A DNA stretch of 64,000 bases from a bacterium (lineage in GTDB: Bacteria; UBA8248), in assembly GCA_965203325.1 (NCBI GenBank), contig OZ241875.1, positions 2,056,812 through 2,120,811 on the forward strand, read 5' to 3'. Position numbers and translations under genes: made by a program. Position 1 is the first letter of the stretch; each line of letters opens with the position of its first letter. Shown here in pieces: positions 16,282-49,371 of the stretch. The notes beneath the pieces are model-generated. The model made no database searches. It worked only from the letters and a program-made list of their open reading frames with translations, and had not been told where the DNA came from.

Positions 16282-16939
16282 GGGTCGCGCCTCCGGTGTT
16301 GCGGGTGAGGGGATCGCGGGCGCCGCCCGGCCTCTCAGGCCCGGCTCCCGCGCCCCATCACGGCCAGGCTCGGCCTCTCGCCGGCGCGGGGCCCGGGGGA
16401 GGCGCGCGATGAACGCCCCGGCGCCCGGGCGCTGGAATGCGGATATCGAAACCCCTTGCAAGCGGGCGGTTTTTCAGTTTATTTCCGTGCGGTGCGGACT
16501 ACCGTATGCACCCGGGATGAGCGAACGGGACGAAAGGAGAGACGCGCATGGACAAGAACGCCGGAAGTGGTGCGATCACGCCCCGGGCGGAGCGCCGGAG
16601 TATTGCCGCGATCAGGCTGTCCGGGCCGGCCGGAAGAGGGGGATGGCGCAATGATCCGGCAGGCACGCCCCGGGATGCGCAGACGCTTGATTCCCCTCGT
16701 TTGCGTTTTGATTGCTTGCTGCGGAAGGTGGGTTCCGGACGAGACCCGGGGGAAATGAATGCTTCTCGATGATATGAACGGGATCAGGAGATTTTACAGC
16801 CGCCGGAATCCCCCACCCTCTCTAACCACGCGGGAGAGCGGGATGCGCGCCCCCTCCCGCCGGGCGTCGGCGAGCGCGAGGAGGGGGATCGCGGTGAAGC
16901 GGGCCGGGAGGGACGGCCTGCGCTACCCCCGGTCCGCCC

Positions 16940-19900
16940 CTACCAGCGCTTCGAGCCGCGCAGCAGGAGGCCGCCTTCGGGTCTCCCGCCGCCGGCCTGT
17001 TCGGTGAGGCTCGCCTCGAGGCTCACCTCCGTGGCCGCCCCGGGCTTCCACCGCGCGCCCGCGCGCCAGGTCTCCCCGTTCCCCGAGACCGCCACGCCCG
17101 TATAGGGCGTCAGCAGCCCCCGGGGGGCGTCCAGGCCCCAGGCCGCCTCGGCCTCGAAGCCCGCACCGCCCGGCTCGAACGCACCGCCCGTCGAGAGGCC
17201 CGCCGCCTGCGACCAGAGCCGCTCCGCACCGCCGGCGGAGGCGCCCCACGAGGAGCCCGCCCGAAGCGTGAGGCCCCGTCCCCCGGAGCCGGGGGCGTAC
17301 GCCACCGAGGCGCTCACGCCCCATTCCTCATAACCGCTCTCGCCGTGGGAGAGCAGGCCGCGCGCGCGCACCTCCGTCGTCAGGGCGCCCGAGGTCCAGC
17401 GCAGGCCGCCGCCGGCCTCCACCCCGCCGCCCGTCTCCGCGTCGCCCGAATCGTTCCGGAACCCTATCTCCAGCGAGGGCGTCAGCACCGCATCGCCGAA
17501 CCTGAGCGAGCGCGAACCCTCCAGCACGAGGCGCACGCGGCTCGTCTCCGCCTCCGTCTCCGCCAGGCCCGCCGCGGCGTCCGAGCGCGTGTTCGTCACC
17601 AGGACGTCCGCGCGGAGCGCGAGCTCGAACCCGCCCGCCTCGCGCGCGGGCAGAACGACCCCGCGCGCCCCCGCCGCCGCCATGCCCATCGCCACGTCGG
17701 CCTCCAGCGGGGACGACCCCCCGGGCGTGAGCGTCATCTCCCCCTGCCCGTGGCCCACAGCGCCCCAGAGCGAGAACGTCCCGCTCACACGGTAGCGCGC
17801 GTAGGGGTAGACACCCGTAAGCGTGCTCTCCACCTCGCCCGCGCAGCCCGCGTCGCACGCGCCGCCCGCCTTGTACGAGCCGTCGCCCGCGCTTCGCGAG
17901 AGCGCCACGCCCACCAGCCAGCGCGCCCGCTCGTAGTCGAAGCCCACGGTCGCCGTCGTCACGTCGCCATCCAGCGAGAGATCGCCCTCGGCGCCCTCGA
18001 ACGAGGAGCGCGCGCCCCGGCCCCACAGCGACCAGCGCGAGCCGGCGTCCACCTTCTCCGCCGAGGCCATATGAAACGAACTCGCGAGGAGGAGATCGGA
18101 CATCGCGACCTCGCGCACCGAAGGCGCCTGCGCCTCTTCGCCGCGCCCGAGCCGGGCCTCCCTCTCCTTGAGGAGAGCCTCGGCGAGGCGCGACTCGATG
18201 GCCTCGCGCTCCGGCCCGCCCGTGAGGCTGTGGCCGCCCAGCACGACGCCCGCGGCGCCGCCGCCCGAAAGGCGTCCGTCAATCGCCCCGGCGACGTGGC
18301 CCGCCGCCGTGCGCCCGAAGCGCGACAGCCACATCCTTTGCAGCGGGTCGTCGTTGCGGATGACGCCCTTCGCCTTGCTGTGGACGCCCCGGAGATACGC
18401 CCCCTGCGGGTTCGAGAGCAGAAGCCGCATCGTCTCCTTGCCCTCGTCGATGGCGTCGTCGAGCACCGGCACCGAGACCGTCTTCGCCGTTTCGCCGGCC
18501 GCGAAGACGAGCGTGCCCGACGTGGCCGTGTAGTCCGCACCCGCCGCCGCCGTGCCGTCCTCGGTCGCGTAGTCCACCGAGACCGCGTGCGCCGCCGCGC
18601 GGTTGAGCGTCACCGCGAAGTCCAGGCTCGCGTCCTTGCCTTCCTTCGCCCTGGCGCCCTCGATGCGGATGCGCACCGGGCCGCCCACGGTCGCGGTCGT
18701 CGTGTTCGTGAGCGCCCGTCCGTCGGCCGTGCAGATCGCGCCCGCAACGGCGCAGTCCACCGGCTGGAGCAGCGTGATCGTCACGTCCTTCCAGGCGTTG
18801 GCCGCCTTCGGCGTCACGGTCACGGTGTACCGCGTGCCGGACCCGCTGACGCTGGCTTTCCCCGGCGCCACCTTGAAGGAGGCCGCCACCGGCAGATTGC
18901 CGGCGCCCGGCGCCTCGCTCAGCGTCAGGTCGAAGGTGAACGCCGTGCCGTCGTGCTCCGAGGGGACATTCTCGAACGCCGCCGTCAGCGGCTCCGTGCG
19001 CTGCTGCTGCTGTTGCTGCGCTTGCTGTTGCTGCTGCGCCGCCTGCCGCGTCACCGTGACCTCGTAGGTCTTCTCCACGCCCGTCCCCGCCGTGGTCTTC
19101 ACCACCAGAACGTTGGCGCCGACCGCGAGCGCGACCGCAGGACCGGACTGGCCGCTCCGCACACGGGTCAGCTCCGTTCCGCTGCCCGCCCTGAGCGTCA
19201 GGTCCTCGTCCGCCGTCGCCGGCACAAGCCGCGCATGCGTCGTCCCGTGCGGCACCGTCACCGCATACGCCGTCGTCTCCGCCGCGAACGCGCCGAGGTC
19301 CAGCTTCGCCCACGGCCCGCCGGCGCTCGCCGCGCCCTCGACCGACAGCCCGTCCAGATGCGCCTCGTCGTTCAGGATCTGGACCCGAGCCCGGCCGTAA
19401 CCCGGCGCGATGGTGGCGCCGGCCGGCAAACTCAGCTGGAACCAGAAGAACTCTCCGCTGTCCTCCACGCTGTCGTCGAGGATCGGAATGTTCACCGTCT
19501 TGCGCGTCTCGCCCACTTCAATTCGAACTTCCCGGAGGAGAACTCCCGTATAGTCCGATCCCGCCGTCGCCGTGCCGTCGGCTGTTCCGTAGAACACCGC
19601 CACGGCCTCCGTTGCCGCGCGGCTGAGCCACACCGTGACGGGCACATTGCTTGCCTGGCCGTTGCCCGCCTCGCGCCCGATTGCGGGCCACGCGCCCACC
19701 TGCACCGCGCCGCCGTCGTCGGTCACGGTGACGAACACGCCCTCGGCCGCGTCCGGACTCGCGTAGTCGGTGTCCGTGCTCGAGAACAGCGGCAGGATCA
19801 TCAGGTGCTCCTGGTCGCCGTCGTCGTCCTGCACCCCGGTGACCGTCACCGTCTGGGCCTGACTCCAGTTGGTCGACGTGAAGGTCAGCGTCGCCGGGCT

Positions 19901-21109
19901 CACCGTGGCGGCGTTCGCGTCGCCGTGCACTCCCTGCAGGCCGGATTTCACCAGGTTCACGGTCACGTTCGCCGTGGGCTGTTTGGTCAGCTTTACCCCG
20001 ATGGTGGCGGAGCCGCCCTCCGGGACGATCAGATCGTTCCGTCCCGTTTCGGAACTGGGCACGAAGCTGGCGCTCTCGATTTCCACGCCGGTCCACGGCC
20101 TCGCGGTCAGGCGGAGCTGGACCCGCTGGCCGGCGGTCCAGGTGAGACCTGTATTGGTCCACTCCGTTGCTAGATTAGTGAGGTAGTTCCCCTTCGCGAG
20201 AGGAAACGACTTCCCGTCGACATACAGCGTCAGCCTTCGCCAATGCCCGGTGGCCTGTCTTATCGCTGTCCCATATTCCAGACTCAGTTCCACGTTTGCG
20301 TCAGAAGCATCAATGTAGAGCCGTTCGACCGTATTCGCAGTTCCCTCATGCGTAAAGCTGTTGGTCGTCAGCGCAGCACTGCAGTTGGGCACAGGAGCGT
20401 ACGTGTCATCGCAACCGAAGTAAGGCGCGGTTCCGCCCACCGTCAGCGTGGCGGTCCAGATGGTCTGCTCGTTTTTCGATGCGACATCCGACGTCTTATC
20501 GAGGGGCCTCCACGTCGGTTCGGCCGTTGTCTCCGGCGCGGGCTTCGTGCCCTGTGTCGTGATCTGTGATATGTCCGACCATGGGCTGGCGACGCCGCCG
20601 ATCGTGGCGCGCAGCCGCACGTCGTACGAGGTGCCGGGCTTCAGGCCCGTTATGCTCGCGGTTTTCTCCGTCATGTCCAGCACGCGTTGGTTGTGCCCGA
20701 GCCGCACATGTTCCACCCAGCCCAGCGCCGGGTCGGCGCCGTTGAAGGACGCCCGGTCGGGGGCGCCCGTTTCCTTGTACTGCAGCTCGAAGGTGTCGCC
20801 GGACGCACCGTACCACCATACGTCCAGACCTTCGGGGGTCGCAAACAACGTCGGTGCCTGCGGGGTCGGGGTCTGCGCCTCGGCGGGCGCGGGGGCGAAC
20901 AGCGAGAGCGCGCCGAGCAGCAGGGCGAGGACGGGAAGAAGGGAGAGGCGGCGGGCGCGGGCGCGCCCGGTGCGGGCGTCAGGCCGTCGGGAGCACGCCG
21001 AGGTCGGGGAAGCAGGCGTGCGCGCCCCGGCCGGGCGCACTTCACGCCGCCGGCCCGCGCTGCAGAACGCCGCCGCGAGCAGCATCGAAATCCGTGCAAT
21101 GTTCTTCAT
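16940..21109 (-). CDS. autotransporter outer-membrane protein with Calx-beta passenger domains
   Basis: Start taken at MKNIARISMLL. Cleavable-looking region LLPVLALLLGALSLFAPAPAEAQ. Calx-beta blocks (GTADGTATAGSDYTGV..ILDDSVEDSGEFF; ATEDGTAAAGADYTATSGTLVFAAGETAKTVSVPVLDDAIDEGKETM). Poly-Q linker. C-terminal beta-barrel-like ~280 aa ending ..LLLRGSKRW. Confidence 0.9.
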   Translation of the reverse strand: MKNIARISMLLAAAFCSAGRRREVRPAGARTPASPTSACSRRPDARTGRARARRLSLLPVLALLLGALSLFAPAPAEAQTPTPQAPTLFATPEGLDVWWYGASGDTFELQYKETGAPDRASFNGADPALGWVEHVRLGHNQRVLDMTEKTASITGLKPGTSYDVRLRATIGGVASPWSDISQITTQGTKPAPETTAEPTWRPLDKTSDVASKNEQTIWTATLTVGGTAPYFGCDDTYAPVPNCSAALTTNSFTHEGTANTVERLYIDASDANVELSLEYGTAIRQATGHWRRLTLYVDGKSFPLAKGNYLTNLATEWTNTGLTWTAGQRVQLRLTARPWTGVEIESASFVPSSETGRNDLIVPEGGSATIGVKLTKQPTANVTVNLVKSGLQGVHGDANAATVSPATLTFTSTNWSQAQTVTVTGVQDDDGDQEHLMILPLFSSTDTDYASPDAAEGVFVTVTDDGGAVQVGAWPAIGREAGNGQASNVPVTVWLSRAATEAVAVFYGTADGTATAGSDYTGVLLREVRIEVGETRKTVNIPILDDSVEDSGEFFWFQLSLPAGATIAPGYGRARVQILNDEAHLDGLSVEGAASAGGPWAKLDLGAFAAETTAYAVTVPHGTTHARLVPATADEDLTLRAGSGTELTRVRSGQSGPAVALAVGANVLVVKTTAGTGVEKTYEVTVTRQAAQQQQQAQQQQQQRTEPLTAAFENVPSEHDGTAFTFDLTLSEAPGAGNLPVAASFKVAPGKASVSGSGTRYTVTVTPKAANAWKDVTITLLQPVDCAVAGAICTADGRALTNTTTATVGGPVRIRIEGARAKEGKDASLDFAVTLNRAAAHAVSVDYATEDGTAAAGADYTATSGTLVFAAGETAKTVSVPVLDDAIDEGKETMRLLLSNPQGAYLRGVHSKAKGVIRNDDPLQRMWLSRFGRTAAGHVAGAIDGRLSGGGAAGVVLGGHSLTGGPEREAIESRLAEALLKEREARLGRGEEAQAPSVREVAMSDLLLASSFHMASAEKVDAGSRWSLWGRGARSSFEGAEGDLSLDGDVTTATVGFDYERARWLVGVALSRSAGDGSYKAGGACDAGCAGEVESTLTGVYPYARYRVSGTFSLWGAVGHGQGEMTLTPGGSSPLEADVAMGMAAAGARGVVLPAREAGGFELALRADVLVTNTRSDAAAGLAETEAETSRVRLVLEGSRSLRFGDAVLTPSLEIGFRNDSGDAETGGGVEAGGGLRWTSGALTTEVRARGLLSHGESGYEEWGVSASVAYAPGSGGRGLTLRAGSSWGASAGGAERLWSQAAGLSTGGAFEPGGAGFEAEAAWGLDAPRGLLTPYTGVAVSGNGETWRAGARWKPGAATEVSLEASLTEQAGGGRPEGGLLLRGSKRW

Positions 21110-21213
21110 TTGAAATGCCCCCTGTTCCGTGATTTCGGGTTCAAGCTGACGCAGCCGGTCTTTCCGCGAGAGGCGGATTCCTGCGGTATGCGCCACCTCG
21201 AACCCGGGCTGGT

Positions 21214-21416
21214 GTCCGCTAATTGACGTTATCGGAAAGTTAAACACCTCTCACGGCCATGTCAAGCGCAATTCCGGGGTCCCCGGAGGGGTTTCGGGCG
21301 CCGTTTTGCGTCTTTTTTCGCTCATGTTTCGCTCATTTGCGGCCCGAATGCGCCCCAAATCGGGTTTTTCGGCGGAAAACGGGGTTTCTGGGGGCCGATA
21401 ACGTCAATTATCGGAC
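21214..21416. other. candidate invertible DNA segment (159 bp core flanked by 22-bp inverted repeats)
   Basis: IRL gtccgctaattgacgttatcgg (21214-21235). IRR ccgataacgtcaattatcggac (21395-21416). Its reverse complement matches IRL at 21/22 positions. Each repeat is itself CCGATAA-N6-TTATCGG. Confidence 0.6.
21238..21265 (-). promoter_or_regulatory. sigma70-like promoter inside the invertible segment, currently facing the autotransporter gene
   Basis: On the minus strand: TTGACA (21265-21260), a 16-nt spacer ending in TGt, then TTAACT (21243-21238). It directly abuts IRL. Confidence 0.45.
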
Positions 21417-21530
21417 TTCAGAAACCCGCCGTTTCGCCGGTATTAGCCTGCGAAACGGCTTTTTTTTGTGGAAATTCCCCGTCGTCGTCTATACTTGGTA
21501 ATCGAGGAGGCCCTGAAGCGGCCTCAGGGA

Positions 21531-22403
21531 ATGGAAACGGCCGCCGACCTGGCGAAGGCGTCGATGTCTGAGAACACGTGGCGGGCGTACGAGGCGGCGC
21601 TCAGGGGGTTCGAGCGCTCGGGAAACCCCGAGACCGACGCCGGGATAGCGGCGTACCTGGGGGATCTCTACGAGGGGGGGCACTCGGCGGCCGTGGCCGC
21701 GATGGCGGTCGCGGCGCTTCGCTTCCGGGCGAAGCTGAACGACCGGCCCTCCCCGGTGGGGGCGGCCTCGGAGCGGGTGCTGGCCGGCTTCAGGCGCCTG
21801 GCCGCAGAGCGCGGCCGGGGCCAGGTGGTGGGGGTGCGCTGGGAGCAGGCGGACCGGGCGGCGGCGCTGGCCGAGGGGACGGGGACCCTGGCCGGTCTGC
21901 GCGACGCGGCGATCGTTGCGGTGGCGAGCGACGCCCTGCTCCGGGTGTCGGAGGTCGAGGCGCTCGACATCGCCGACGTGGACCTGGACGAGCAGACGGT
22001 GCTGATCCGCCGCTCGAAGACGGACCAGGAGGCCGAGGGCGTCGTGCAGTTTCTGGGCGAGCCGACGGTGGCGCGCGTCGGGGCCTGGCTGGCGCGCGCG
22101 GGTCTCGAGGAGGGAGCGCTCTTCCGGGGCGTGTACAAGGGGGGACGGCTTCGGCCCGGGCGCCTGACGGAGAGGAGCATCCGGAGCATCATCGCGCGGT
22201 GGGGGAAGGCCGCGGGCGTGGAGGGGCGCGTGAGCGGGCACAGCCTGCGCGTGGGGGGCGCGCAGAGCCTGGCCACGGCGGGGGCGTCCCTGGTCGAGAT
22301 GCAGATTGCCGGGCGCTGGCAGTCGCCGGTCATGCCGGGGCGCTACGCGCAGGGCCAGCTCGCGAAACAGGGCGCGATGGCGAGGCTGCGCTACGGCCTG
22401 TGA
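21531..22403 (+). CDS. tyrosine recombinase (Cre/XerD-like)
   Basis: N-terminal SENTWRAYEAALRGFERS. Catalytic landmarks ..LLRVSEVEAL..D, GHSLRVGGAQSLA, GRWQSPVMPGRY. Start at METAADL is uncertain. Confidence 0.9.
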   Translation: METAADLAKASMSENTWRAYEAALRGFERSGNPETDAGIAAYLGDLYEGGHSAAVAAMAVAALRFRAKLNDRPSPVGAASERVLAGFRRLAAERGRGQVVGVRWEQADRAAALAEGTGTLAGLRDAAIVAVASDALLRVSEVEALDIADVDLDEQTVLIRRSKTDQEAEGVVQFLGEPTVARVGAWLARAGLEEGALFRGVYKGGRLRPGRLTERSIRSIIARWGKAAGVEGRVSGHSLRVGGAQSLATAGASLVEMQIAGRWQSPVMPGRYAQGQLAKQGAMARLRYGL

Positions 22404-22491
22404 GGTCCGCCCGGCGTTTCGTCGTGAGCATGTCCTTCGCTGCGGGCAGGTCCGCCGCGTGCGGGACGCCCGTTTTCTCCCGGAAATCTCC

Positions 22492-23211
22492 CTACCGCCT
22501 CTTCCTCCTCCGGGCGGCTCTCTCCTCGGACGTGGAAGTCCACCTCCGGGCGGAGGCCCACTTCTCGAGGTCTTCGAGCAGGTAGCGCACCCGGTATCCG
22601 GTGCGAAGAAAATCCGGCCCCTCTCCGCTCACGCGGTAGCGCTCGAGCGTCTTGGGCGAGAGGCCGAGCCAGGCGGCCGCCTCCCGCGTGTCCAGATGGT
22701 TCTCCTCAGCGAGTTCATCGGCGTCTCCCGCGGCCCCGGGTTCCACGGCGGCGTCCCACGTCCCGTCGAACGGATCGGGCAAGTCCGCGAGCCTCTCTCG
22801 TATGGCGCGGATCTCCTCTCGGGTCGCGTTGGCCGCCATCCAGGCGCGCACCCGGTCGAAGGTCTTGAGATACGGCGAGGCGCCCCGGCGCAGCCTCCCC
22901 ACGAAGGAGGGATTCCCCACGGTCTCCTCGCCCAGGATCGAGACCTTGGTCCCGCTCACCGCCAGGAACGCCTCGACCTCGGCCCGCAGGAGCGGTCCCA
23001 GGGGCGGATACCCCATGAACGCCAGCACCCGGTCCGCCGTGTCGACCCGCAGGGGCCGCCCCCGGGCCTGCAGTCCCACGAAGCCGGGAATGCCCAGCGC
23101 GCCCACCCCGAAGCGCCTCGCGCTCATCCCGCGGCGCGCGCGCCAGAGCGCAATGCTCCGGCGCAGCCGCTCGTCCAGCGGGGTGCCGGTATCGTCGTCG
23201 AACGCGGTCAT
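22492..23211 (-). CDS. regulator with C-terminal MerR/excisionase-type HTH
   Basis: HLDTREAAAWLGLSPKTLERYRVSGEGPDFLRTGYRVRYLLEDLEKWA. The N-terminal half has no motif I recognise. Confidence 0.75.
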   Translation of the reverse strand: MTAFDDDTGTPLDERLRRSIALWRARRGMSARRFGVGALGIPGFVGLQARGRPLRVDTADRVLAFMGYPPLGPLLRAEVEAFLAVSGTKVSILGEETVGNPSFVGRLRRGASPYLKTFDRVRAWMAANATREEIRAIRERLADLPDPFDGTWDAAVEPGAAGDADELAEENHLDTREAAAWLGLSPKTLERYRVSGEGPDFLRTGYRVRYLLEDLEKWASARRWTSTSEERAARRRKRR

Positions 23212-23967
23212 GGCGCGCGAACATAAGGAAAGTGCGAGCGCCCGTTCAATCGTTGTTTCTAGCGCGGAAGGTACACCCGGGAAGAGTCCGTGACCGCGTC
23301 CGTGCGCGGATCGCTCACCGGTTCAGCTTGAAATCAAGAGGGTTTCCCGGAAAACGAGGGTCGCCGGAGAACGTGCAGCGGGGCGCTACGGAAAAAACCG
23401 GGAACGATGCTGCCCCCCGGCGCGCGCTCGAAAGCCTCTCTCGTTCACGCCGCGGTGGGCTGTTTCGCGAGTCGTCCCTGCGCATGACCGCGATTGGCGG
23501 TGAACGGTATCTCGAACTGCCGCTGTTCGGGAACTGCTGTTACGGCCTGGCTGAATGATTGGCGAGCGCTCACGGACGATCGCCCGCCGTGATGCGCAGG
23601 GGTTATAATGAATCCGCTTTCGTTATGATTACGGGCCTGCCAGGGAAGATTCATGGCAACCTGTTAACTAACCTTATTACAGCACCTTATAGGATAATCG
23701 AAAATGCCCGAAACTGCTCTTGTCTCTAAGACGAACAAAACCGCATTCGCCGTAGGGGCGGTTCGCGAACTGCCCCTACAAAACCCGCAAATCCTACCGA
23801 TTGCCGAAACGAGCGCGGCGTAGGGACAACCCCCTGTGGTTATCCCCCGTCGGACAGGCACGGGGGCCTGTCCCTACGCCGCCGCAATTGTTCCCTACCC
23901 GGAGCCGTTGAAAAAGCCCCCCTTGACAGGGGTTGTTGAAAAAGCCTCCATCGGGCGGAGCTCTTGT

Positions 23968-23999
23968 GTGTAGGGGCCGCATATATGCGGCCCCTACAC
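23968..23999. repeat. perfect 32-bp palindrome gtgtaggggccgcata|tatgcggcccctacac
   Basis: Read directly. Relatives at 48556-48581 and 48596-48631. Confidence 0.9.
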
Positions 24000-24123
24000 T
24001 CCCTTCGGCAAGGCGGAATCCCATTGCCGTCATTCCGGCATTGCAGGGCTTTTTCAACAACCCCTGCCCGGTGGCGATTGACCCCCCACCGGCGCAGTTG
24101 CGGACTTAGGCCCCTTGCCTTGA

Positions 24124-24252
24124 CGTATCCCATGGGATACGATTGGATTCCTGCAGCAAAAGCAGTCCCTGGTGATCCTGCTCGCCGGAGGAGATAAAAG
24201 CACTCAGGCTCGGGATATCTTTAGAGCGCGGAATCTGGCACTAGAGTTATAG
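24124..24252 (+). pseudogene. 3' remnant of an addiction-module killer (RelE/ParE-like, TIGR02683-type) gene
   Basis: Frame gives ..GFLQQKQSLVILLAGGDKSTQARDIFRARNLALEL*. This is the conserved LL.GGDK..Q..DI..A C-terminus, but only ~40 codons remain after a stop, and repeat DNA lies upstream. Confidence 0.6.
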
Positions 24253-24261
24253 GAGTTCGTG

Positions 24262-24546
24262 ATGGCGAAGACGAAAACCAGACCGTGGGATGCGGCGGAT
24301 CATCTCGAAACGAAAGAGGATATCGCTCTCTACCTCGAAGCGGCTTTCGAGGACGGCGACCCGGCGCTCATTGCGGCGGCATTGGGCGACGCCGCGCGGG
24401 CCAGGGGGATGACGAAGGTCGCCGCCGAGACCGGTCTGGGCAGGGAGAGCCTCTACAAGGCGCTCTCGCCCGAGGGGAACCCTGAGTTCGCCACCGTTCT
24501 CAAGGTCATGCGCGCCCTGGGCCTTCGGCTTCGCCCAACCGCCTGA
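24262..24546 (+). CDS. addiction-module antidote protein (HTH, TIGR02684-type)
   Basis: AGGAG sits 6 nt before the ATG. Peptide PWDAADHLETKEDIALYLEAAFEDGDPALIAAALGDAARARGMTKVAAETGLGRESLYKALSPEGNPEFATVLKVMRALGLRL. Confidence 0.85.
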   Translation: MAKTKTRPWDAADHLETKEDIALYLEAAFEDGDPALIAAALGDAARARGMTKVAAETGLGRESLYKALSPEGNPEFATVLKVMRALGLRLRPTA

Positions 24547-24779
24547 TCGCCCGCGTTCACTATCCCTGCCCGAGAAGTTCCGCCACCCTGCTCCTCCCCG
24601 TCATATGTCCCCGCCGTCTCTGAAGTCCCTGCCACCCCGCCGATCCGTAGAATCCGAAAAAAATGGTTGTATATAGCATCTTCATCATGTTATTTTTTCC
24701 CTTCTACACTAGACGCATGCCGGAGGACCTATCTTTATTTCCTGATGCCCGTGAGGGCCCACGAGGAAGGAGAATTGCG

Positions 24780-25805
24780 ATGAAAAAGCAATTGTTCACC
24801 GTACTTTGCGCGTTTGCCGCTGTGGCGGTAATCGCAAGCGCTGCGTTCGCCGCCAGCCCGACGCTGGATACGGTGAAAAAGCGCGGCAATCTCATCTGCG
24901 GCGTCAACACCGGCCTCACAGGCTTCTCGGCCCCCGACGACAAGGGCGTCTGGAGAGGGTTCGACGTCGATTACTGCCGCGGCATCAGCGCAGCGATTTT
25001 CGGGGATCCCGACAAGGTGACCTACAAGCCGCTGACGGGCAAGACGCGCTTCCCGGCGCTTCAATCGGGCGAGATCGACGTCCTCTCGCGCAACACGACC
25101 TGGACCTTCAAGCGCGACGTGAACCTCGGCTTCGAGTTCGTGGGCGTGCTGTACTACGACGGGCAGGGCTTCATCGCCCGCAAGTCCCTGAACGTCAAGA
25201 GCGCCAAGGAGCTCGGCGGCGCTTCGATCTGCATCCAGACGGGCACCACGACCGAGCTCAACCTGGCGGACTTCTTCCGCAGCAACAAGATGAAGTTCAA
25301 ATCGGTCGTCGTCGAGGACGCGGCCGAGGCGCGCCAGAACTACGCGGCCAACCGCTGCGACGCCTACACGACGGACCGCTCCGGCCTCGCCGCCCAGCGC
25401 TCCGTGCTCAAGAACCCGGCCGACCACGTGATTCTGCCCGAAATCATCTCGAAAGAGCCCCTGGGTCCCGTCGTTCGCCACGGCGACAACGTGTGGGGCG
25501 ACATCGCCCGCTGGGTGCGCAACGCGTTCATCGTGGCCGAGGAGCTCGGCATCACGTCCAAGAACGTCGACGCCATGAAGAAATCGAGCAATCCCGAGAT
25601 CAAGCGCATGCTCGGCCAGGAGGGCGACTTCGGCAGCATGCTCGGCCTCTCGAAGGACTGGGCCTACAACGTCATCAAGAGCGTGGGCAACTACTCGGAG
25701 ATCTACGAGCGCCACATCGGCCCCAAGACGGCCATCGGCCTCGCGCGCGGCTACAACCAGCTCTGGACGAAGGGCGGCATTCTCTACTCGCCTCCGTTCC
25801 GCTAA
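24780..25805 (+). CDS. aapJ: general L-amino acid ABC transporter substrate-binding protein
   Basis: Signal peptide followed by CGVNTGLTGFSAPD, RFPALQSGEIDVLSRNTTWT, YYDGQGF, ICIQTGTTTELNLADFF, ILPEIISKEPLGPVVR. Close to rhizobial AapJ / Rhodobacter BztA as I recall them. Confidence 0.9.
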   Translation: MKKQLFTVLCAFAAVAVIASAAFAASPTLDTVKKRGNLICGVNTGLTGFSAPDDKGVWRGFDVDYCRGISAAIFGDPDKVTYKPLTGKTRFPALQSGEIDVLSRNTTWTFKRDVNLGFEFVGVLYYDGQGFIARKSLNVKSAKELGGASICIQTGTTTELNLADFFRSNKMKFKSVVVEDAAEARQNYAANRCDAYTTDRSGLAAQRSVLKNPADHVILPEIISKEPLGPVVRHGDNVWGDIARWVRNAFIVAEELGITSKNVDAMKKSSNPEIKRMLGQEGDFGSMLGLSKDWAYNVIKSVGNYSEIYERHIGPKTAIGLARGYNQLWTKGGILYSPPFR

Positions 25806-25923
25806 GCCGACAGAAGATGTAAAGTAGTACCGCAACCGGCTCCGGGGAAATTCCCCGGGGCCGGGCGGCGCGTTATCAAGACATAGATACCGCACAAGAG
25901 AAGTCGCACCCCGGGAGCTCGAT

Positions 25924-27123
25924 ATGGCGGTAGACTCTCAAGCAAGCGGCGGACGGCCAAGCGCCGCCAGTTGGTGGTACGACCCGAAAGTCCGGTCGAT
26001 CGCATTCCAGGTCGCCTTCGTGCTGGCGCTCGTCGGTCTTGCCGTCTACCTCGTCCACAACACGCTCATCAACCTCGAAAAACGCAACATCAAAACGGGA
26101 TTCGATTTCCTCTTCAACCCGGCGGGCTTCGAGATTCCGCTCACGCTCATTCCCTATTCCGTCGAGGCGGGTTCGACCCACGGCGCCGTCTTCATCGTCG
26201 GCCTGCTCAATACGTTCCTCATCTCGGCCCTGGGGATCGTGCTGGCGACGATTCTCGGCTTCATTCTCGGCGTGCTCAGGCTCTCGAACAACTGGCTGGT
26301 CTCGCGCCTGGTGGGGGTCTACATCGAGTCGGTGCGCAACGTGCCGCTGCTGCTGCAATTCCTGTTCTGGCACTTCGCCGTCTTTCAGTCGCTCCCCTTG
26401 GTCCGCCAGGCGATACCGATTTTCGATACGGTCTATATCCACAACCGCGGACTCACGATTCCCAGGCCCATCCCGCAGCCGGGCTTCATGTTGGTCGTGG
26501 TATCGGTTCTCGCCGCGGTCGCGGGGATCGTCTGGCTCAGGAAATGGGCGCGCAGGCGCCAGGACGCGACCGGCGAGCAGTTCCCCGTCTTCTGGACGTC
26601 GCTGGGCATCTTCATCGGCGCGCCGCTGCTCGCCTCCATAGCGGCCGGTTTCCCCCTCACCTGGGAATACGCGGAACTCGGCCGGTTCCGCTTCACGGGC
26701 GGCCTGGGAATCCAGATAGAGCTGTTCTCCGCGTTGGCCGCGCTCACGGTCTACACCTCCTCGTTCATCGCCGAAATCGTGCGCGCGGGCATCCTCGCCG
26801 TCTCGAAGGGCCAGCAGGAGGCCTCCTATTCACTCGGTGTGCGGCCGGCGCCGACTTTGAGGCTCGTCATCATCCCCCAGGCGCTCCGGGTCATCGTGCC
26901 GCCGCTGGTGAGCCAGTACCTGAACCTGACGAAAAACTCCTCGCTCGGCATCGCCATCGGCTACCCCGATCTGTTCAACGTCTTCGGCGGCATCTCGCTG
27001 AACCAGAGCGGCCAGGCCATCGAGATCGTCGCCATGTGCATGGTGGTGTATCTCACCTTCAGTCTGCTGATATCGCTCTACATGAACTGGTACAACCGGC
27101 GCATATCGCTGGTGGAGAGGTGA
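25924..27123 (+). CDS. aapQ: general L-amino acid ABC transporter permease
   Basis: 399-aa polytopic protein in the aap gene order. Has the ALR.IVPPLVSQYLNLTKNSSLGIAIGYPDL permease loop. Confidence 0.88.
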   Translation: MAVDSQASGGRPSAASWWYDPKVRSIAFQVAFVLALVGLAVYLVHNTLINLEKRNIKTGFDFLFNPAGFEIPLTLIPYSVEAGSTHGAVFIVGLLNTFLISALGIVLATILGFILGVLRLSNNWLVSRLVGVYIESVRNVPLLLQFLFWHFAVFQSLPLVRQAIPIFDTVYIHNRGLTIPRPIPQPGFMLVVVSVLAAVAGIVWLRKWARRRQDATGEQFPVFWTSLGIFIGAPLLASIAAGFPLTWEYAELGRFRFTGGLGIQIELFSALAALTVYTSSFIAEIVRAGILAVSKGQQEASYSLGVRPAPTLRLVIIPQALRVIVPPLVSQYLNLTKNSSLGIAIGYPDLFNVFGGISLNQSGQAIEIVAMCMVVYLTFSLLISLYMNWYNRRISLVER

Positions 27124-27127
27124 TGCC

Positions 27128-28258
27128 ATGAGCGATATCGCCAATAACCCGGACAGGAGCTTTTACCGCACCGAGAATATCCCGCAGTCGCCGCCGCCGG
27201 TCTCGACGGTGGGAATCGTCGGCTGGATGCGGCAGAACCTCTTCTCCTCGCCGCTCAGCACGGCGCTCACGCTGCTGACGCTCTATCTCCTCTATTCGGT
27301 CGTGCCGCCGCTGTTCCAGTGGGCCTTCATCGACTCGCTCTGGCAGGGGGAGTCGAACAAGGACTGCCGGGGCATCGAGGGCGCCTGCTGGGTCCTGGTG
27401 CCGAAGCGATTCGCGCAGTACATCTACGGCTTCTATCCCGAAGCCGAGCGCTGGCGGGTGAACCTGACCTTCATCCTGTTCTGCATCAATCTCTTCCCGG
27501 TGCTCTCCGACAGGGTGCCGGGCCGCACCTTCGCGGCGCTCTTCCTGGTATTCGGCTTTCCCGTCATCGCCTTCGTTCTGCTCCACGGCGCTTTCGGCCT
27601 GGAGAGCGTGCCCACGAACAAGTGGGGCGGCCTGACGCTCACCCTCGTGTTCGCCTCGGTCGCCATCCTGTTCTCCCTGCCGATAGGGATTCTGCTGGCG
27701 CTCGGGCGGCGCTCCGAGATGCCCGTCATCCGCACGATCTGCATCGCCTTCATCGAACTGTGGCGCGCGGTGCCGCTCATCACCGTGCTCTTCATGGCGT
27801 CCTTCGTACTGCCGCTGTTCACGCCCGAAGGGGTGAACGCCAACGAACTGCTGCGCGCCCTGATCGGCTTCACCATGTTCTCATCCGCCTATATGGCCGA
27901 GGTCGTGCGCGGGGGTCTTCAGGCCCTGCCCAAGGGCCAGACCGAAGCCGCCCAGGCGCTGGGGCTCAACTACTGGAAGTCGATGCAGTTGATCATCCTG
28001 CCCCAGGCGCTCAAAATCGTGATCCCGGGCATCGTCAACACCTTCATCGCGCTTTTCAAGGATACGGCGCTGGTATCGATCATCGGGCTGTTCGATCTCT
28101 TGCTCGTGGCCCGCTCGGCGGTGACGGACCCCAAATGGCTGGGTCTCGAGCATGAGTCCTACATATTCGCGGCCGTCATCTATTTCGTCTTTTGTTTTAG
28201 CATGTCGCGCTACAGCCTGTGGCTCGAGCGCAAGCTCGACACGGGCCACAGAACCTGA
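27128..28258 (+). CDS. aapM: general L-amino acid ABC transporter permease
   Basis: 376-aa polytopic protein. Motifs [48 protein letters not shown]. Confidence 0.88.
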
Positions 28259-28275
28259 GGGGGGAGAACGCACCC

Positions 28276-29016
28276 ATGAGTGAGCCGATTATCCGCATCG
28301 AGGGCATGAACAAGTGGTTCGGCGAGTTCCACGTCCTGCGCGACATCGACCTGACGGTGAACCGGGCCGAGCGCATCGTCATCTGCGGGCCTTCGGGTTC
28401 GGGGAAATCGACGCTCATCCGCTGCATCAACCGCTTAGAAGAACACCAGAAGGGCGCCATCGTGGTAGAGGGCATCGAACTGACCGGCGACTTAAAGCAA
28501 ATCGACAACGTGCGCCGCGAAGTCGGCATGGTGTTCCAGCAGTTCAACCTTTTCCCGCACCTCACGGTGCTGGAGAACTGCACCCTCGCCCCCATCTGGG
28601 TGCGCAAGACGCCGAGGGCCGAGGCGGAAGAACTCGCGATGGAATACCTGACGCGCGTCAAGATTCCCGAACAGGCACTGAAATACCCCGGCCAGCTCTC
28701 AGGCGGGCAGCAGCAGCGCGTGGCGATTGCGCGCTCGCTCTGCATGCGGCCCAAGATCATGCTGTTCGACGAGCCGACCTCCGCGCTGGATCCCGAGATG
28801 ATCAAGGAGGTGCTCGACGTGATGGTCGAACTCGCCGAGACCGAGATGACGATGCTGGTAGTGACGCACGAGATGGGCTTCGCGCGCCAGGTCGCCCACC
28901 GGGTCATCTTCATGGACGAGGGCCAGATCGTCGAGCAGAACGAACCCGAGGAATTCTTCTACAACCCCAAATCCGACCGCACGAAACTCTTCCTGAGCCA
29001 GATATTGTCGCATTAG
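28276..29016 (+). CDS. aapP: general L-amino acid ABC transporter ATP-binding protein
   Basis: Walker [10 protein letters not shown], signature [13 protein letters not shown], Walker [13 protein letters not shown]. Start at [16 protein letters not shown] with a G-rich RBS. Confidence 0.92.
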
Positions 29017-29133
29017 GGTCAAACGCGATTGATGAATGAGTGTTTGACACGACTGATGAGGGAGCGATCGCTAGCGAGCGAGATTAGAATCGGCTCGCAA
29101 TTTCTTCCTCATCGCCCGGAATTGACCACTGCC

Positions 29134-29269
29134 GTCATTCCGGCGAAAGCCGGAATCCATTTGCGGATGTGAATGAATGAACGGCGGCGTTTCATACCCC
29201 GGCCGATGCGCGAGGACCCTGACGAAAGGAAAAAGGCGAAAAATGGATTCCGGCTTTCGCCGGAATGAC
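29134..29269. repeat. 136-bp MITE-like element, copy 1
   Basis: Terminal inverted repeats GTCATTCCGGCGAAAGCCGGAATCCAT / ATGGATTCCGGCTTTCGCCGGAATGAC. The internal sequence is shared with copies 2 and 3. Confidence 0.85.
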
Positions 29270-29709
29270 GATTTTGTGGATTAAGCCTGAGCGAGAATAG
29301 AGGGTTCACTCCCCCCTTGAGGGGGAGTCAGTGAGCTAAGGGCGCAAGCCCGCAAGCGAACTGGTGGGGGGAGCTTTTCTGTGGCATGTCCCCCCACCAC
29401 ATCGGCCTTCGCACAAACCGCTCGGCCTCTGTGACTCCCCCTCAAGGGGGGAGTTGATACCTCCTCTTCCCTGGATGGCAAAACTCTCAAGGGGTTGTTG
29501 AAAAACCTTGTTCCGTGATTCGGCGAATGGAACCAACCGGGGAAAGGGTCCGTAGGGACAGGTCGCGACCTGTCCCTACAAAACCAACTCCTCTGGCCCC
29601 CTTGTCAGGGGGTAAAGGCGATGCGGTTTTGTTCGTCATTCCGGCGGTGGATAATTCCGAGCGAGGGGGAGTTTTTCAACAAGCCCATTAGGGGGGCTGT
29701 TCTATTCCC

Positions 29710-31395
29710 CTACCCCTCCGGCCCATAAGCCCCCGGCGCGAGGGCCTCGATGTCCGTCACGACGTCGAGGACCACGGGGCCTCCCTTCATGCTGAAGGCC
29801 TGATCGAGCGCGCTTCCGAGTTCGCCCGGTTTTTCCACGCGGATGCTCTGGGCGCCCATCGATTTGGCGATTTCGGTGAAATTCGTCTCGTTGAAGTGCC
29901 AGAGCTCGTGCGCCTTTCCGTGTTGTTTCCCGCCGTAGGCGTCGTCGAAAATCTTGGTCTCCTGGTTCTGTGAGCCGTTGTTGTTCACGAGGATGACGGC
30001 GTGGATGCCCCAGCGCACGGCGGTCTCGACTTCGCCGATGTGGTACCAGAAACCCGCATCGCCCGTGAAAAGAATGACGGGCCGCTCGGGCGCGCCGCAC
30101 TTGGCGCCGAGGGCCGCGGGGAACCCCCAGCCCAGGTGGCCCGCCGCGCGCATGAAGCTGATGCCGGGGCTTTTTAAGTCCAGATAGCCGCCCGTCCACA
30201 TGCCCGAATGCCCGGTGTCGGCGAGGACGATGGCGTCTGAGGGCAGGTGTTCGCCCAGCGTCTTGCAGACCCGCTCGGGCCGCATGGGAGCGGCGTCCGA
30301 ATTCAGGAGCGGCGCGAATTCCGCCCGCCACGCGGCGCCCACTTGCTCCACGCGCGAGAGCCAGGCCCCGCGTTCTGTAACTTCTTCCGCCGCTTCCGTC
30401 AGCTTCCCGAGGGCGATCTTCGCGTCCCCGATTATGGAGGCTTTGAGCGGGTAGTTGCGCCCGAGTTCTTCGGGGTCGATGTCGAGCTGCACCGCCGTGA
30501 CGCCGATTTTCGGCACGCGCCAGAAGTGGGTGGTCATGCCGCCCGTCTGGGTGCCAATGAAGAATACGAGGTCGGCTTCCGATACCAGTTCGTTCGCGCT
30601 CCTCCTCGAATACGACCCCACCACGCCGACAGACAGGGGATGATCGCCCGGGATCGATTCCTTGCCGTTCATGGAAGTGGCGACGGGGATTTGCAGCTTC
30701 TCGGCGAAGGCGACCAATTCCGCGTTGGCGCCCGAGGTCCGCACGCCGCCGCCCGCGACGATGATGGGCCGCTCCGCTTTCGCGATGACTTCCAGCACAC
30801 GGGCGATGCTCGCGGGCTCAGGCTCGGGCCGATAGGCGGGGACCTGTTTGAAATTCTCCTCCACGATGAGTTCCAGATCGGCCACGTCCTGCTCCACCTG
30901 GCCCAGGTTCCCGCCGAAGCGCAGGTGCACCGGGCCGGGCGTGCCCGAGGTGGCGACGCGGAAGGCCTGGCGCAGCAGATCGGGAAAACGCGAGACGTCG
31001 TCCACCGTGGCGTTGAACTTGGTGACCGGGTCGAACGCGCTGATGTCTTCGGTTTCCTGGTAGGCGTTCCGGTAGCGTATCTGCGGCGTGGTGCCGCCCG
31101 TGAAGGCGATCATGGGCGCGCAGGCCAGGTGAGCGTCGCGCAAACCCGCCGCCAGGTTTACGCCGCCCACGATCTGCGCCATGCAGACGCCGGGGCGGCC
31201 CGAGGCGCGCGCGTAGCCGTCCGCCATGTAGGCCGCGGCCTTCTCCCCGTGGGTCAGGACGCGGGCGATGCCCGTGCCGCGCTCATCCATCTGTGCGAGT
31301 GAGTGGCTCAATATCGTCGGCACGAAGAAAATGTGGGTGACACCGTAGGCGTGGAGGGCGTCAGCCATGAACTGCGCCCCGCTCATCTTGGGCAT
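29710..31395 (-). CDS. thiamine-diphosphate-dependent enzyme (acetolactate-synthase-like family)
   Basis: Motifs GVTHIFFVPT, HGEKAAAYMADGYAR, and the ThDP-binding GDAGFWYH..VILVNNNG. Start taken at MPKMSGAQF because the longer ORF runs into a MITE. Confidence 0.85.
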   Translation of the reverse strand: MPKMSGAQFMADALHAYGVTHIFFVPTILSHSLAQMDERGTGIARVLTHGEKAAAYMADGYARASGRPGVCMAQIVGGVNLAAGLRDAHLACAPMIAFTGGTTPQIRYRNAYQETEDISAFDPVTKFNATVDDVSRFPDLLRQAFRVATSGTPGPVHLRFGGNLGQVEQDVADLELIVEENFKQVPAYRPEPEPASIARVLEVIAKAERPIIVAGGGVRTSGANAELVAFAEKLQIPVATSMNGKESIPGDHPLSVGVVGSYSRRSANELVSEADLVFFIGTQTGGMTTHFWRVPKIGVTAVQLDIDPEELGRNYPLKASIIGDAKIALGKLTEAAEEVTERGAWLSRVEQVGAAWRAEFAPLLNSDAAPMRPERVCKTLGEHLPSDAIVLADTGHSGMWTGGYLDLKSPGISFMRAAGHLGWGFPAALGAKCGAPERPVILFTGDAGFWYHIGEVETAVRWGIHAVILVNNNGSQNQETKIFDDAYGGKQHGKAHELWHFNETNFTEIAKSMGAQSIRVEKPGELGSALDQAFSMKGGPVVLDVVTDIEALAPGAYGPEG

Positions 31396-31426
31396 GTTGT
31401 TATCCTTGAAAGAGTGGGTGTTCACC

Positions 31427-31562
31427 GTCATTCCGGCGAAAGCCGGAATCCATTTTTACGCCTTTTGCCTTTCGTCATGGTTCCCGCACATCGGCGGGGA
31501 ATAAAAAGCCGCCGTTCATTCGCCCGCATCCGCAAATGGATTCCGGCTTTCGCCGGAATGAC
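31427..31562. repeat. 136-bp MITE-like element, copy 2 (inverted relative to copy 1)
   Basis: Same terminal inverted repeats. The interior is the reverse complement of copy 1. Lies 32 bp upstream of the ThDP-enzyme start. Confidence 0.85.
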
Positions 31563-31703
31563 GAACGAAAACCAAATTCGTCATCAGCCCCGAGAAGAGA
31601 GCACCACATACCGTAGCGACAGGTCGCGCTATAATAAACGCAAAGCCTCCCGCAAAGGGTTTTCGAACCACCCTCTCCAGGCTGGAGTGGTTACACCATT
31701 CTA

Positions 31704-32501
31704 TTACGCGACGCCTATCATCGCTTTCGCCTCGTCCACGCTCGCGATCTCGCGGCCCATCTCGCCCGCGACCCGCGCGATGCGCGCGACGTGATCGGCG
31801 TTATCGCCCAGTTCGCCGGGGTGGAGATAGGGCTCGTCCTCCGTACCCACGCGCACGTGGCCGCCGTGCATCACGGCCATCGTCTGCATGTGGATGTGGG
31901 TGGGGCCGGTGGCGCTCGTGATGTAGACCGAATCCGCGGGCAGGTTCGAGACGCGGTGCAGGAACTCGCTTAGGGAAGGCGGCGACCACGCGCCGCCCGG
32001 ACGCCCGAAGAAGCACGTCATGAGAATCGGCGGCTCCACCAGCCCTTTCTGGAGCAGGTCGTCGATCATCCAGGTCTCGCCCAGCGTGAAGACCTCGAAC
32101 TCGGGCTTGACGTTGTAATCCTTGCAGAGCCGCATCATCTCGGCCAATTCCTCGCGGGGGTGGAGCATCATCACGTCGCGCGCGATGAAGGCCATGTTGT
32201 GCGCCCCCACGGCGACGGACATCATCTCGGGATGGTTCTTCACCACCTCTTTTCGCTGCTCGACCGTCTGGGTGGAGATGCCGTACTGGAGCATGATTCC
32301 GCACCTGTCGCGTATGGCCTTCGAGTGCGACGCCCAGGCCTCGTAGTTCGTGGGCGGGGCGTGGATGTGGGCGGTGGAAGCGCCCGCCTCGTAGGCTTTT
32401 TCGACCGAGTCGGCGAGGACTTCCGAATCCGCGAAGCGCTGCGGCACGCCCTCGTGCATCGAGGTGTCCGCCGCGCAGTTGATGATCATCATCTTTTCCA
32501 T
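31704..32501 (-). CDS. BKACE family enzyme (3-keto-5-aminohexanoate cleavage-like, DUF849)
   Basis: Start MEKMMIINCAAD. Motifs AHIHAPP and GGHVRVGTEDEPY, typical of DUF849/BKACE. Confidence 0.85.
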   Translation of the reverse strand: MEKMMIINCAADTSMHEGVPQRFADSEVLADSVEKAYEAGASTAHIHAPPTNYEAWASHSKAIRDRCGIMLQYGISTQTVEQRKEVVKNHPEMMSVAVGAHNMAFIARDVMMLHPREELAEMMRLCKDYNVKPEFEVFTLGETWMIDDLLQKGLVEPPILMTCFFGRPGGAWSPPSLSEFLHRVSNLPADSVYITSATGPTHIHMQTMAVMHGGHVRVGTEDEPYLHPGELGDNADHVARIARVAGEMGREIASVDEAKAMIGVA

Positions 32502-48272: not shown

Positions 48273-48698
48273 TATCTCACCCGCTCGAAGTCCGGCCGCT
48301 CAAGAGCCTCCGTGAACCGGCACGGCTGCCAGTCCGGTGGATTCGGCCGCACGATTCCGCAGGCTGTGAGGGGGTCGGGCGGTCGAACCGGCTGTTTAGC
48401 AAACAATGATTGCAAAAATTTGTTTCCTAAACAACAGGGTGAAACATATATAGTTTTTGGGCGGCCGTGTCAACGATTTCACGGGGCGGAAAAGGCCTCC
48501 GCACGCCTTCGCCGTCATTTCGAAGTTCAACGATCTATGAAGGGCCATCATCCGCGTGTAGGGGCCGCATACATGCGGCCCTGCCTTTTCGCCTTCACAC
48601 CGCGGGTCGCATATATGCGACCCCTACACTCGAATTGACATCCCGACCAAGGTGAAGGTCAAACACGACCCGACACATGCGTCCCTTTGCTTTTGAGC

Positions 48699-49320: not shown

Positions 49321-49371
49321 CCCTCACGGGGCTTTTGAAAAAGCCGTCCTTGGCCAGAATTGACCACCGCC

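Follow-up and report, generated by a model that had tools for sequence, protein, structure and literature searches.

The 64-kb window analysed here, i.e., the whole stretch from position 2,056,812 to 2,120,811 of contig OZ241875.1 (assembly GCA_965203325.1, lineage UBA8248), carries a 159-bp segment with a putative promoter at one of its edges, which is flanked by two short inverted sites and lies between a gene coding for an adhesin-like protein and a divergently oriented gene coding for a Cre-like tyrosine recombinase. Based on comparisons with related loci, this element can be interpreted as a recombinase-driven invertible promoter (inverton) with a probability of about 0.85, and it is likely, if somewhat less certain, that the orientation of the segment controls the adhesin-like gene as proposed in an initial annotation of the window. 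In the following, all coordinates are positions in the window, IRL and IRR denote the left and the right site, respectively, and the gene to the left of a switch is called its cargo. The elements of central importance are:

16940-21109, minus strand: cargo gene, coding for a 1389-amino-acid adhesin-like secreted or surface protein with fn3, Cadherin-like and two Calx-beta domains (Pfam)
21216-21235: IRL, CCGCTAA-TTGACG-TTATCGG, composed of outer arm, core (21223-21228) and inner arm, with conserved positions out to CTG at 21209-21211
21236-21394: predicted invertible segment (159 bp), with homologous segments at 22 other loci; in the window orientation its promoter points leftward, toward the cargo gene
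21238-21265, minus strand: putative switch promoter, with -35 TTGACA (21265-21260), a 16-nt spacer ending in TGT, and -10 TTAACT (21243-21238)
21395-21414: IRR, CCGATAA-CGTCAA-TTATCGG, composed of inner arm, core (21402-21407) and outer arm, with conserved positions out to CAG at 21419-21421
21531-22403, plus strand: gene for a Cre-like tyrosine recombinase of 290 amino acids (PF00589) with the catalytic residues R138, K163, H237, R240, W263 and Y272

Paired sites with identical cores

A repeat search of the window yielded inverted-repeat arms at 21209-21235 and 21395-21421 (27 nt, 89% complementary, 159 nt apart), and a check of the sequence bore out that the 22-mers at 21214-21235 and 21395-21416 are inverted copies of one another matching at 21 of 22 positions. 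In none of 40 dinucleotide-preserving shuffles of the window was there a 22-nt inverted repeat that had no more than one mismatch and a gap of 30-1000 bp, as compared to nine in the real window, the other eight of which belong to palindrome families resembling repetitive extragenic palindromic (REP) sequences or miniature inverted-repeat transposable elements (MITEs). The inverted repeat formed by IRL and IRR is beyond chance. Within each site, the 7-nt arms are inverted copies, and the 6-nt cores are asymmetric and run in opposite directions at IRL and IRR. With respect to the lox/FRT-like layout that had been suggested, the succession of arm, asymmetric 6-bp core and arm can therefore be retained, but not the arm length of 7 nt, as in three of the four arms conservation reaches over about 13-14 nt (CTGnnnnCCGnTAA).

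Related loci were collected in a scan taking one genome per species (80 loci). The close set consists of 23 loci including the window; the core and arm mismatches were tallied in 19 of them, and the loci L085-L088 were added later. All 23 close loci have an inverted site pair upstream of the recombinase gene, the starts of the two sites being 158-179 bp apart, and share the constant succession of site, 138-159 bp segment, site and recombinase gene; the segments themselves are all homologous to one another. The linkage of recombinase gene and sites is kept in all related loci. Across loci the arms are near-invariant at the positions CCG.TAA / TTA.C.G, to which a conserved CTG four bases further out can be added in three of the four arms, and the flanks of the sites are not conserved.

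Comparing the two partner sites of each of the 19 tallied loci, there are 145 mismatches at 228 flank positions and 53 at 266 arm positions, but none at 114 core positions, despite the fact that 14 different core versions occur across loci. The cores of L085-L088 are perfectly matched within each pair, too, and all seven copies (7/7) from one organism carry different cores. The core positions are thus the most variable ones between loci and never differ within a pair, as is required of the strand-exchange region of a tyrosine recombinase. As judged from these alignments, this pattern is the signature of a crossover region and would not be expected of a transposon end or of an RNA stem, and different cores would prevent recombination between separate switches. 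A reading of the sites as MITE or transposon ends was rejected, since no target duplication was found, the position of the repeats with respect to the recombinase gene is constant, and the core sequence changes from copy to copy.

The start-to-start spacings in the close loci fall into three classes of 158-159, 168-169 and 178-179 bp, corresponding to 15, 16 and 17 turns of 10.5 bp, and one step between these classes is accounted for by an 11-bp duplication at 21316-21337 (see below). A helical phasing of the site spacing was not seen in the more distant relatives, and it is treated as suggestive only.

A Cre-like recombinase adjacent to the sites

The recombinase open reading frame (ORF) is intact in the window and matches PF00589 with 65.9 bits (cut-off 27.1, E = 5e-18). 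All six catalytic residues are present and align, in the order given above, with R173, K201, H289, R292, W315 and Y324 of Cre. As stated in the initial annotation, the ATG at 21531 lies 115 nt past 21416, and this start is conserved among the relatives as METAAD. In a sequence search of the PDB, the top 17 matches were all Cre or the Cre-derived Tre (best E = 1.5e-12), followed by XerA (E = 2.5e-5), and in annotated phage records Dre and Cre were among the matches at about 30% identity (tblastn), with a best match of 37% in plasmid records; the identity to Cre and Dre is only about 25-30%. The scores against the XerC/XerD equivalogs TIGR02224 and TIGR02225 (48.5 and 34.3 bits) stayed below the cut-offs of 335 and 330, respectively, as did those against the NCBIfam models NF007371 (21.9 bits, cut-off 222) and NF007370 (18 bits, cut-off 221) for the FimB/FimE invertases. 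Since the thresholds for both FimB/FimE and XerC/D were failed, the protein was filed as a Cre-like tyrosine recombinase presumably acting as an invertase.

In three related loci (L059:5978-6178, L071:5999-6203 and L001:1-1452) there is the same internal deletion of recombinase codons ~60-280, corresponding to 21707 to 22370 in the window, with an overlap of about 13 nt at the deletion junction and without a working adjacent recombinase. Such switches may be locked, or they may be flipped in trans by paralogues recognising the same arms.

Both orientations among related loci

Amongst the 23 close loci, the promoter points away from the recombinase gene in the window, L016 and L085, and toward it in the other 20. 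In line with this, the window segment aligns to 20 loci exclusively as reverse complement and is colinear to L016 and L085. In four relatives from Latescibacteria the promoter also points away from the recombinase gene and faces a gene for a TonB-dependent receptor. Within the lineage that shares the TTGACG core and the same kind of cargo, the segments of the window and L085 point at the cargo gene and those of L084 and L087 at the recombinase gene. The comparison of these loci with the window gives the following picture:

L085: flanks colinear, with 93.3% identity over 20870-23486; segment colinear, with the same TTAACT -10
L087: flanks colinear, with 90.7% and 91.1% identity; segment reverse complement at 96.6% identity (7 differences in 208 nt), with the same TTAACT
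L084: same cargo gene, colinear at 87.5% identity over 6.8 kb, and recombinase gene at 92.4% identity; segment reversed

The differences among these four loci are mainly substitutions, with few insertions or deletions by comparison, which argues for distinct lineages and not for assembly noise. Flipping the window between the cores in silico raises its identity to the syntenic locus L081 from 73% to 86%, and the alignment is then continuous across both sites. Furthermore, the orientation is at odds with relatedness both for L016 as compared to L014 and L019 and for the window and L085 as compared to L084 and L087, and inversion has thus taken place repeatedly. By these alignments, both orientations of the segment occur naturally at the same locus lineage. 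A scan of metagenomes for the predicted flipped junction of the window locus returned no matches (0). The single match of the metagenome scan with the promoter motif (L083) was dismissed as a chance match, as it comes without recombinase gene or sites.

The putative switch promoter and the region between IRR and the recombinase gene

In the switch family, the predicted promoter has an invariant -35 TTGACA and a 16-nt spacer ending in TGT, and its -10, which reads TATATT in most copies, ends 0-2 nt from the inner arm, so that transcription would start inside the site and run outward. The TTAACT allele of the -10 is found in the window, L085 and L087. The elements of the minus-strand TTGACA-16 (TGT)-TTAACT promoter described in the initial annotation are all present and abut the inner arm of IRL; however, a consensus sigma-70 scanner called no promoter in 20900-21700, because the -10 lacks an A at position 2. 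There is an alternative register, TAACTT with a 17-nt spacer, which has an A at this position.

Further features of the segment and of the region to the right of IRR are:

21274-21286: perfect palindrome CCGGGGTCCCCGG, directly upstream of the switch -35 and conserved in close copies
21316-21337: tandem 11-bp duplication, by which the 159-bp versions of the segment differ in length from the 148-bp ones
21428-21467, plus strand: intrinsic terminator, with the hairpin GCCGTTTCGC...GCGAAACGGC and then T8
21468-21495, plus strand: putative promoter of the recombinase gene itself, GTGGAA (family consensus TTGGAA), a 16-nt spacer and TATACT, behind the terminator

The palindrome could be a regulator-binding site or operator, as suggested by its position and conservation. 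The tandem repeat had been noticed before and was confirmed as TTTCGCTCATG followed by TTTCGCTCATT. An 80-amino-acid ORF at 21259-21501 was rejected as a gene, as it crosses IRR and cannot be conserved across orientations, and a riboswitch or small-RNA reading of segment and leader was likewise discarded after a search of 20800-21700 against Rfam had returned nothing credible.

The terminator region (21415-21472) folds at -27.1 kcal/mol (z = -5.6). It was missed by the terminator scan because its loop exceeds 8 nt, and RNAalifold was uninformative on it because the divergent copies do not align in register. Beyond IRR, all aligned copies share a T-run, a TTGGAA-16-TATACT-like promoter and the METAAD start. 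The T-run does not vary among 14 copies; a strong hairpin is seen in copies of the window type and a weak one in more divergent copies. Given the hairpin and T8 just past IRR, recombinase-facing transcripts would not extend further than about 60 nt, leaving expression of the recombinase to a promoter of its own, as which the GTGGAA-16-TATACT motif, conserved in the alignment of copies, may be regarded at the level of the family consensus.

These features also bear on the question of whether the switch might mainly control the recombinase gene, or the recombinase gene together with a gene for a protein with an HTH_17 domain located beyond it, instead of the cargo gene on the left, in which case the orientation away from the recombinase gene would simply be a recombinase-low state. 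Such a role would be in keeping with the 20 of 23 close copies that face the recombinase gene and with the weak hairpin before the T-run in divergent copies, where read-through is plausible. In the copies of the window type, however, a hairpin of -27 kcal/mol followed by T8 is directly in the path of the transcript, the recombinase gene keeps its own conserved promoter, and the left neighbour is almost always a divergent gene for a secreted or surface protein with a conserved leader starting at IRL. A switch serving mainly the recombinase gene is therefore considered quite unlikely, and control of the recombinase and control of the cargo are compatible with each other.

About 25 additional similar bases (CCAGAAACCC.G.TTT.CGCCG) are shared by the segment end away from the promoter and the flank beyond IRR (21370-21439 in the window, and also in other close loci). 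This CCAGAAACCC-type similarity takes in the 5' half of the terminator stem, and in the window orientation it results in a 32-nt, 75% palindrome centred on IRR.

The cargo gene and its leader

The left flank of the switch consists of the cargo gene and the following leader:

21110-21215, minus strand: 5' leader of the cargo gene, of which 21154-21213 is common to the leaders of paralogous switches

The first ATG of the cargo gene is that at 21109, and the true start could lie downstream, near the signal-peptide-like stretch LLPVLALLLGALSLFAPAPAEA. The C-terminal ~400 amino acids are strand-rich and end in RW, and they may form an outer-membrane barrel. The designation of the protein as an autotransporter was confirmed by no model and stays a guess: the C-terminal 468 amino acids had no match to PF03797 even at E = 10, PDB sequence and profile searches with the cargo protein gave nothing relevant, and the AlphaFold model of the C-terminus, which shows a helix and then strands, is unusable at a predicted local distance difference test score (pLDDT) of 37. 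An ARAGORN call of a tRNA-Ala (CGC) at 17855-17926 on the minus strand lies inside the cargo ORF in GC-rich coding sequence and is probably a false positive.

Orthologues and paralogues of the cargo gene reside at the same position in L084, L085 and L087, and to the left of ~21150 the window diverges from loci with a lipoprotein cargo. In most copies of the switch, about 230 nt of conserved leader precede a lipobox-protein gene, whose product (M.FKEK.INKLYAFALAAVFALTLAGCGGGGG) is variable in the middle and conserved at the C-terminus (...G.W.G.FYG...GTF...VGAFGA.KQ); the window retains only about 60 nt of this leader (21154-21213), followed by the Cadherin/Calx-beta gene. For the C-terminal domain of the lipobox proteins there were marginal matches to TbpB_B_D in 3 of 12 members (best E = 0.0011), one match to FHBP_C, and no match in the PDB. 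Other cargoes comprise proteins with RTX repeats, with collagen and PKD repeats, or with Cadherin/Calx-beta domains, as well as TonB-dependent receptors. As far as can be predicted from the encoded domains, the left neighbour is almost always a divergently oriented gene for a secreted or surface protein.

The cargo position is plastic, as the cargo differs between syntenic loci. The syntenic locus L081 has a 701-amino-acid lipoprotein-type protein together with an 81-amino-acid ORF with a signal peptide of the window type, i.e., a remnant, L059 has a lipoprotein-type gene unlike the Cadherin/Calx-beta giant of the window (16866-21154 of the window compared), and in L086 a Cadherin/Calx-beta gene is found on the right of the recombinase gene, at a distance of 3.5 kb and in opposite orientation.

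Proposed mechanism and points against it

Taken together, the conserved site pairs, the covariation of the cores, the conserved promoter, the occurrence of both orientations and the Cre-like catalytic set speak in favour of the fimS-like logic proposed in the initial annotation. According to this model, the recombinase (21531-22403) would bind the arms of IRL and IRR and pair them by looping the 159-bp segment, and strand exchange within the identical 6-bp cores (TTGACG) would then invert it. In the ON orientation, which is that of the window, a sigma-70-type promoter would start transcription inside IRL, leading via a leader of about 105-120 nt into the 1389-amino-acid adhesin-like gene, and in the OFF orientation the flipped promoter would read through IRR into the hairpin-plus-T8 terminator before the recombinase gene, which would be expressed from its own promoter behind this terminator. 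We infer from the comparisons described above that the acting enzyme is the adjacent recombinase and not a paralogue, and likewise where transcription starts, that orientation decides cargo expression, and that the terminator insulates the OFF state. The further statement that the switch is at present ON agrees with how the segment is oriented, as the flipped promoter would fire into a strong terminator.

Several observations weigh against this interpretation. The two orientations were seen between lineages that differ by about 4-12% in their DNA and not within one population. Most assembled copies are recombinase-facing, which is a misfit with a simple model where the recombinase-facing state makes more recombinase and quickly flips away. 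The TTAACT of the window matches TATAAT at only three of six positions and is the most degenerate -10 of the family, so that together with the missing scanner call the ON state of the window may be a weak one, and the promoter was judged by sigma-70 rules, which may not be those of the host. In addition, it is uncertain at which codon the cargo gene starts, with the reading frame of the conserved ATG ending after 22 codons in L084, and in divergent copies with their weak terminator hairpin the promoter facing the recombinase gene may drive that gene.

The restriction of the orientation differences to comparisons between lineages, the degenerate -10 of the window and the loss of the recombinase gene in L059 and L071 might also be explained if the locus were a fossil, left by a single ancient inversion or by RecA-mediated exchange between short repeats, whose switch is no longer active. 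However, perfect core matching in 23 of 23 pairs despite 14 different cores requires continuing constraint, segments with the TTAACT allele occur in either orientation with 96.6% identity, their flanks reaching only about 91%, the orientation does not track relatedness, and the recombinase ORF of the window is intact with all its catalytic residues. A fossil is accordingly regarded as very improbable, and the inverton remains the preferred interpretation.

Comparison with known systems

In the fimS switch of E. coli type 1 fimbriae, a 314-bp invertible promoter segment is flanked by short inverted repeats and neighboured by the genes for the tyrosine recombinases FimB and FimE. The window switch resembles it by its promoter segment between short inverted repeats, the adjacent tyrosine recombinase gene, a surface structure as target, and an OFF state that would be affected by sequence beyond the switch. 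In contrast, its recombinase is not of the FimB/FimE type, there is one recombinase instead of two, the segment has 159 instead of 314 bp, the sites are lox-like with a 6-bp core, a terminator is located right behind one site, and the switch is present in multiple copies with private cores.

The closest solved or annotated relatives of the recombinase belong to the Cre/loxP system of phage P1 and the Dre/rox system of phage D6. In common with these are the two inverted arms around an asymmetric, direction-setting spacer and the match of the spacer between partner sites, and inverted sites lead to inversion. The 13-8-13 geometry of loxP is not found in the window sites, which have a core of 6 bp and arms of about 7-14 conserved positions. 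Furthermore, the sites of the present family are paired and would flip a promoter instead of being a single site for plasmid dimer resolution or circularisation, and they are chromosomal and multi-copy.

Promoter inversion is a familiar phenomenon in gut bacteria and pathogens, and host-associated bacteria can have many inverton switches per genome. In Bacteroides, promoter invertons of about 100-300 bp as detected by PhaseFinder-type searches lie beside the genes of surface proteins, SusC-like TonB-dependent receptors and capsules, in many cases together with a tyrosine recombinase gene. The Latescibacteria relatives of the window switch, which point at TonB-dependent receptor genes, are similar in this respect. 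The family described here differs by the Cre-like lineage of its recombinases, by its hosts, apparently sponge-associated bacteria of many phyla known from metagenome-assembled genomes (MAGs), and by the combination of the same arms with private cores.

RecV of C. difficile is a tyrosine recombinase, too, that inverts short regulatory segments, such as those of cwpV and of the flagellar switch, and the outcome at cwpV depends on an orientation-specific terminator. The likeness consists in a tyrosine recombinase and a short regulatory segment upstream of a surface-protein gene. However, a single, distantly encoded C. difficile recombinase serves several switches with different repeats, whereas each switch of the window family has its own adjacent recombinase gene, and in contrast to cwpV the terminator of the window is outside the invertible segment and the moving part is the promoter.

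A multi-copy family in apparently sponge-associated genomes

Homologues of the recombinase number more than 1,400 at E <= 1e-10, and the best 120 listed are 69-97% identical, with several often on one contig. The MAGs carrying the related loci are labelled, amongst others, as Nitrospinota, Candidatus Entotheonella, Tectimicrobiota, Binatia, Dehalococcoidia, SAR202, Latescibacteria, Poribacteria and Acidobacteria, and as read from these taxa and the isolate names the hosts are apparently sponge symbionts. One MAG has at least seven copies of the switch (L001-L005, L017 and, on a second replicon, L059). The window recombinase is identical to P0250 on a 4.39-Mb contig, and the same contig has at least three further members of the 90%-identity cluster. 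By its sequence, the window switch is one copy of a multi-copy family in which the arms are shared and each copy has a private core.

The presence of multiple copies of the module within genomes and the protein identities of 70-97% across MAGs labelled as different phyla might also indicate that the sites serve a mobile element for attachment or resolution and that the recombinase is mainly an integrase or resolvase which moves the cassette or its cargo, inversion being incidental. The different cargoes at syntenic loci (window as compared to L081, L059 and L086) would fit such a role, and the recurrence of the same internal recombinase deletion resembles non-autonomous derivatives. However, the two sites are always inverted and located together to one side of the recombinase gene, which would result in inversion and not excision, and no third site, target duplication or empty site was seen at the loci examined. 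Moreover, private cores would block recombination between copies, and integration would have no use for a conserved promoter at the segment edge. An integrase or resolvase function as the main role of the recombinase is therefore unlikely.

A more far-reaching proposal, to which we give somewhat less than even odds, is that of a self-contained, horizontally transferred phase-variation cassette, consisting of a Cre-like recombinase, a lox-like promoter inverton, a terminator and a surface-protein leader, that has spread across phyla in sponge microbiomes and multiplies in genomes by changing only its 6-bp core. If true, it would provide a natural set of mutually insulated (orthogonal) switches sharing one recombinase type, a counterpart of the engineered lox spacer variants, and symbionts could vary their surface independently at many loci. 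The recurrence of the switch design across phyla beside genes for surface lipoproteins, adhesin-like giants and TonB-dependent receptors suggests a shared and exchanged means of reversible surface variation, which would bear on the evasion of host phagocytosis or of phages by the symbionts. With at least 14 natural core variants, conserved arms and substrates of about 160 bp, spacer orthogonality and small-loop synapsis are directly testable. A full-text literature search returned no paper linking invertons or phase variation with sponge symbionts; as far as found, the principle is established, and multi-copy switches with private cores, a built-in terminator and a cross-phylum spread have not been described.

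The HTH_17 gene and other features of the window

To the right of the recombinase gene there is a further gene that accompanies part of the family:

22492-23211, minus strand: gene for a 239-amino-acid protein with a C-terminal helix-turn-helix domain HTH_17 (excisionase/MerR-type, Pfam), convergent with the recombinase gene

Homologues with 94-96% amino acid identity directly follow the recombinase gene in L001 (twice), L002, L005, L059 and L081, and L085-L088 have annotated HTH_17 genes that agree in size and position; L003, L004 and L017 are without it. The gene thus accompanies about half of the close switch copies, and the conserved flank extends to ~23740. Its product may be an accessory, directionality or regulatory factor, as suggested by its domain and location. 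Beyond this gene, at 23460-23500 on the minus strand, there is an inverted fragment that looks like the 3' terminus of another recombinase gene (..RGHAQGRLAKQ..), so that the recombinase 3' ends at 22347-22370 and 23460-23500 bracket the HTH_17 gene with a 24-nt, 88% inverted repeat.

Two stretches further to the right are absent at the syntenic place in L081, namely about 8 kb (23740-31714) with genes for an ATP-binding cassette (ABC) transporter (SBP_bac_3 and two BPD_transp_1 genes) and for a thiamine pyrophosphate (TPP)-dependent enzyme, and an insertion sequence (IS) at 32608-34119 with a DDE transposase (DUF772/DDE_Tnp_1_6; ORF 32650-34095, minus strand). In the left part of the window, an 865-amino-acid protein with about 17 ankyrin repeats and a peptidoglycan-binding domain is encoded at 920-3517 on the minus strand; eukaryote-like ankyrin-repeat proteins have often been reported in sponge symbionts. 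A gene for a SIR2_2-domain protein (6539-8650, plus strand) resides in a stretch of low G + C content (0.45-0.55 over ~6-11 kb), which may be a defence island. Short repeats at ~23815-24080 are common to many related loci. Finally, a family of palindromic repeats (CGTCATTCCGGCGAAAGCCGGAATCCATTT) that looks MITE- or REP-like occurs as inverted pairs 78-83 bp apart at 29133-29270, 31426-31563, 48691-48840 and 49369-49520.

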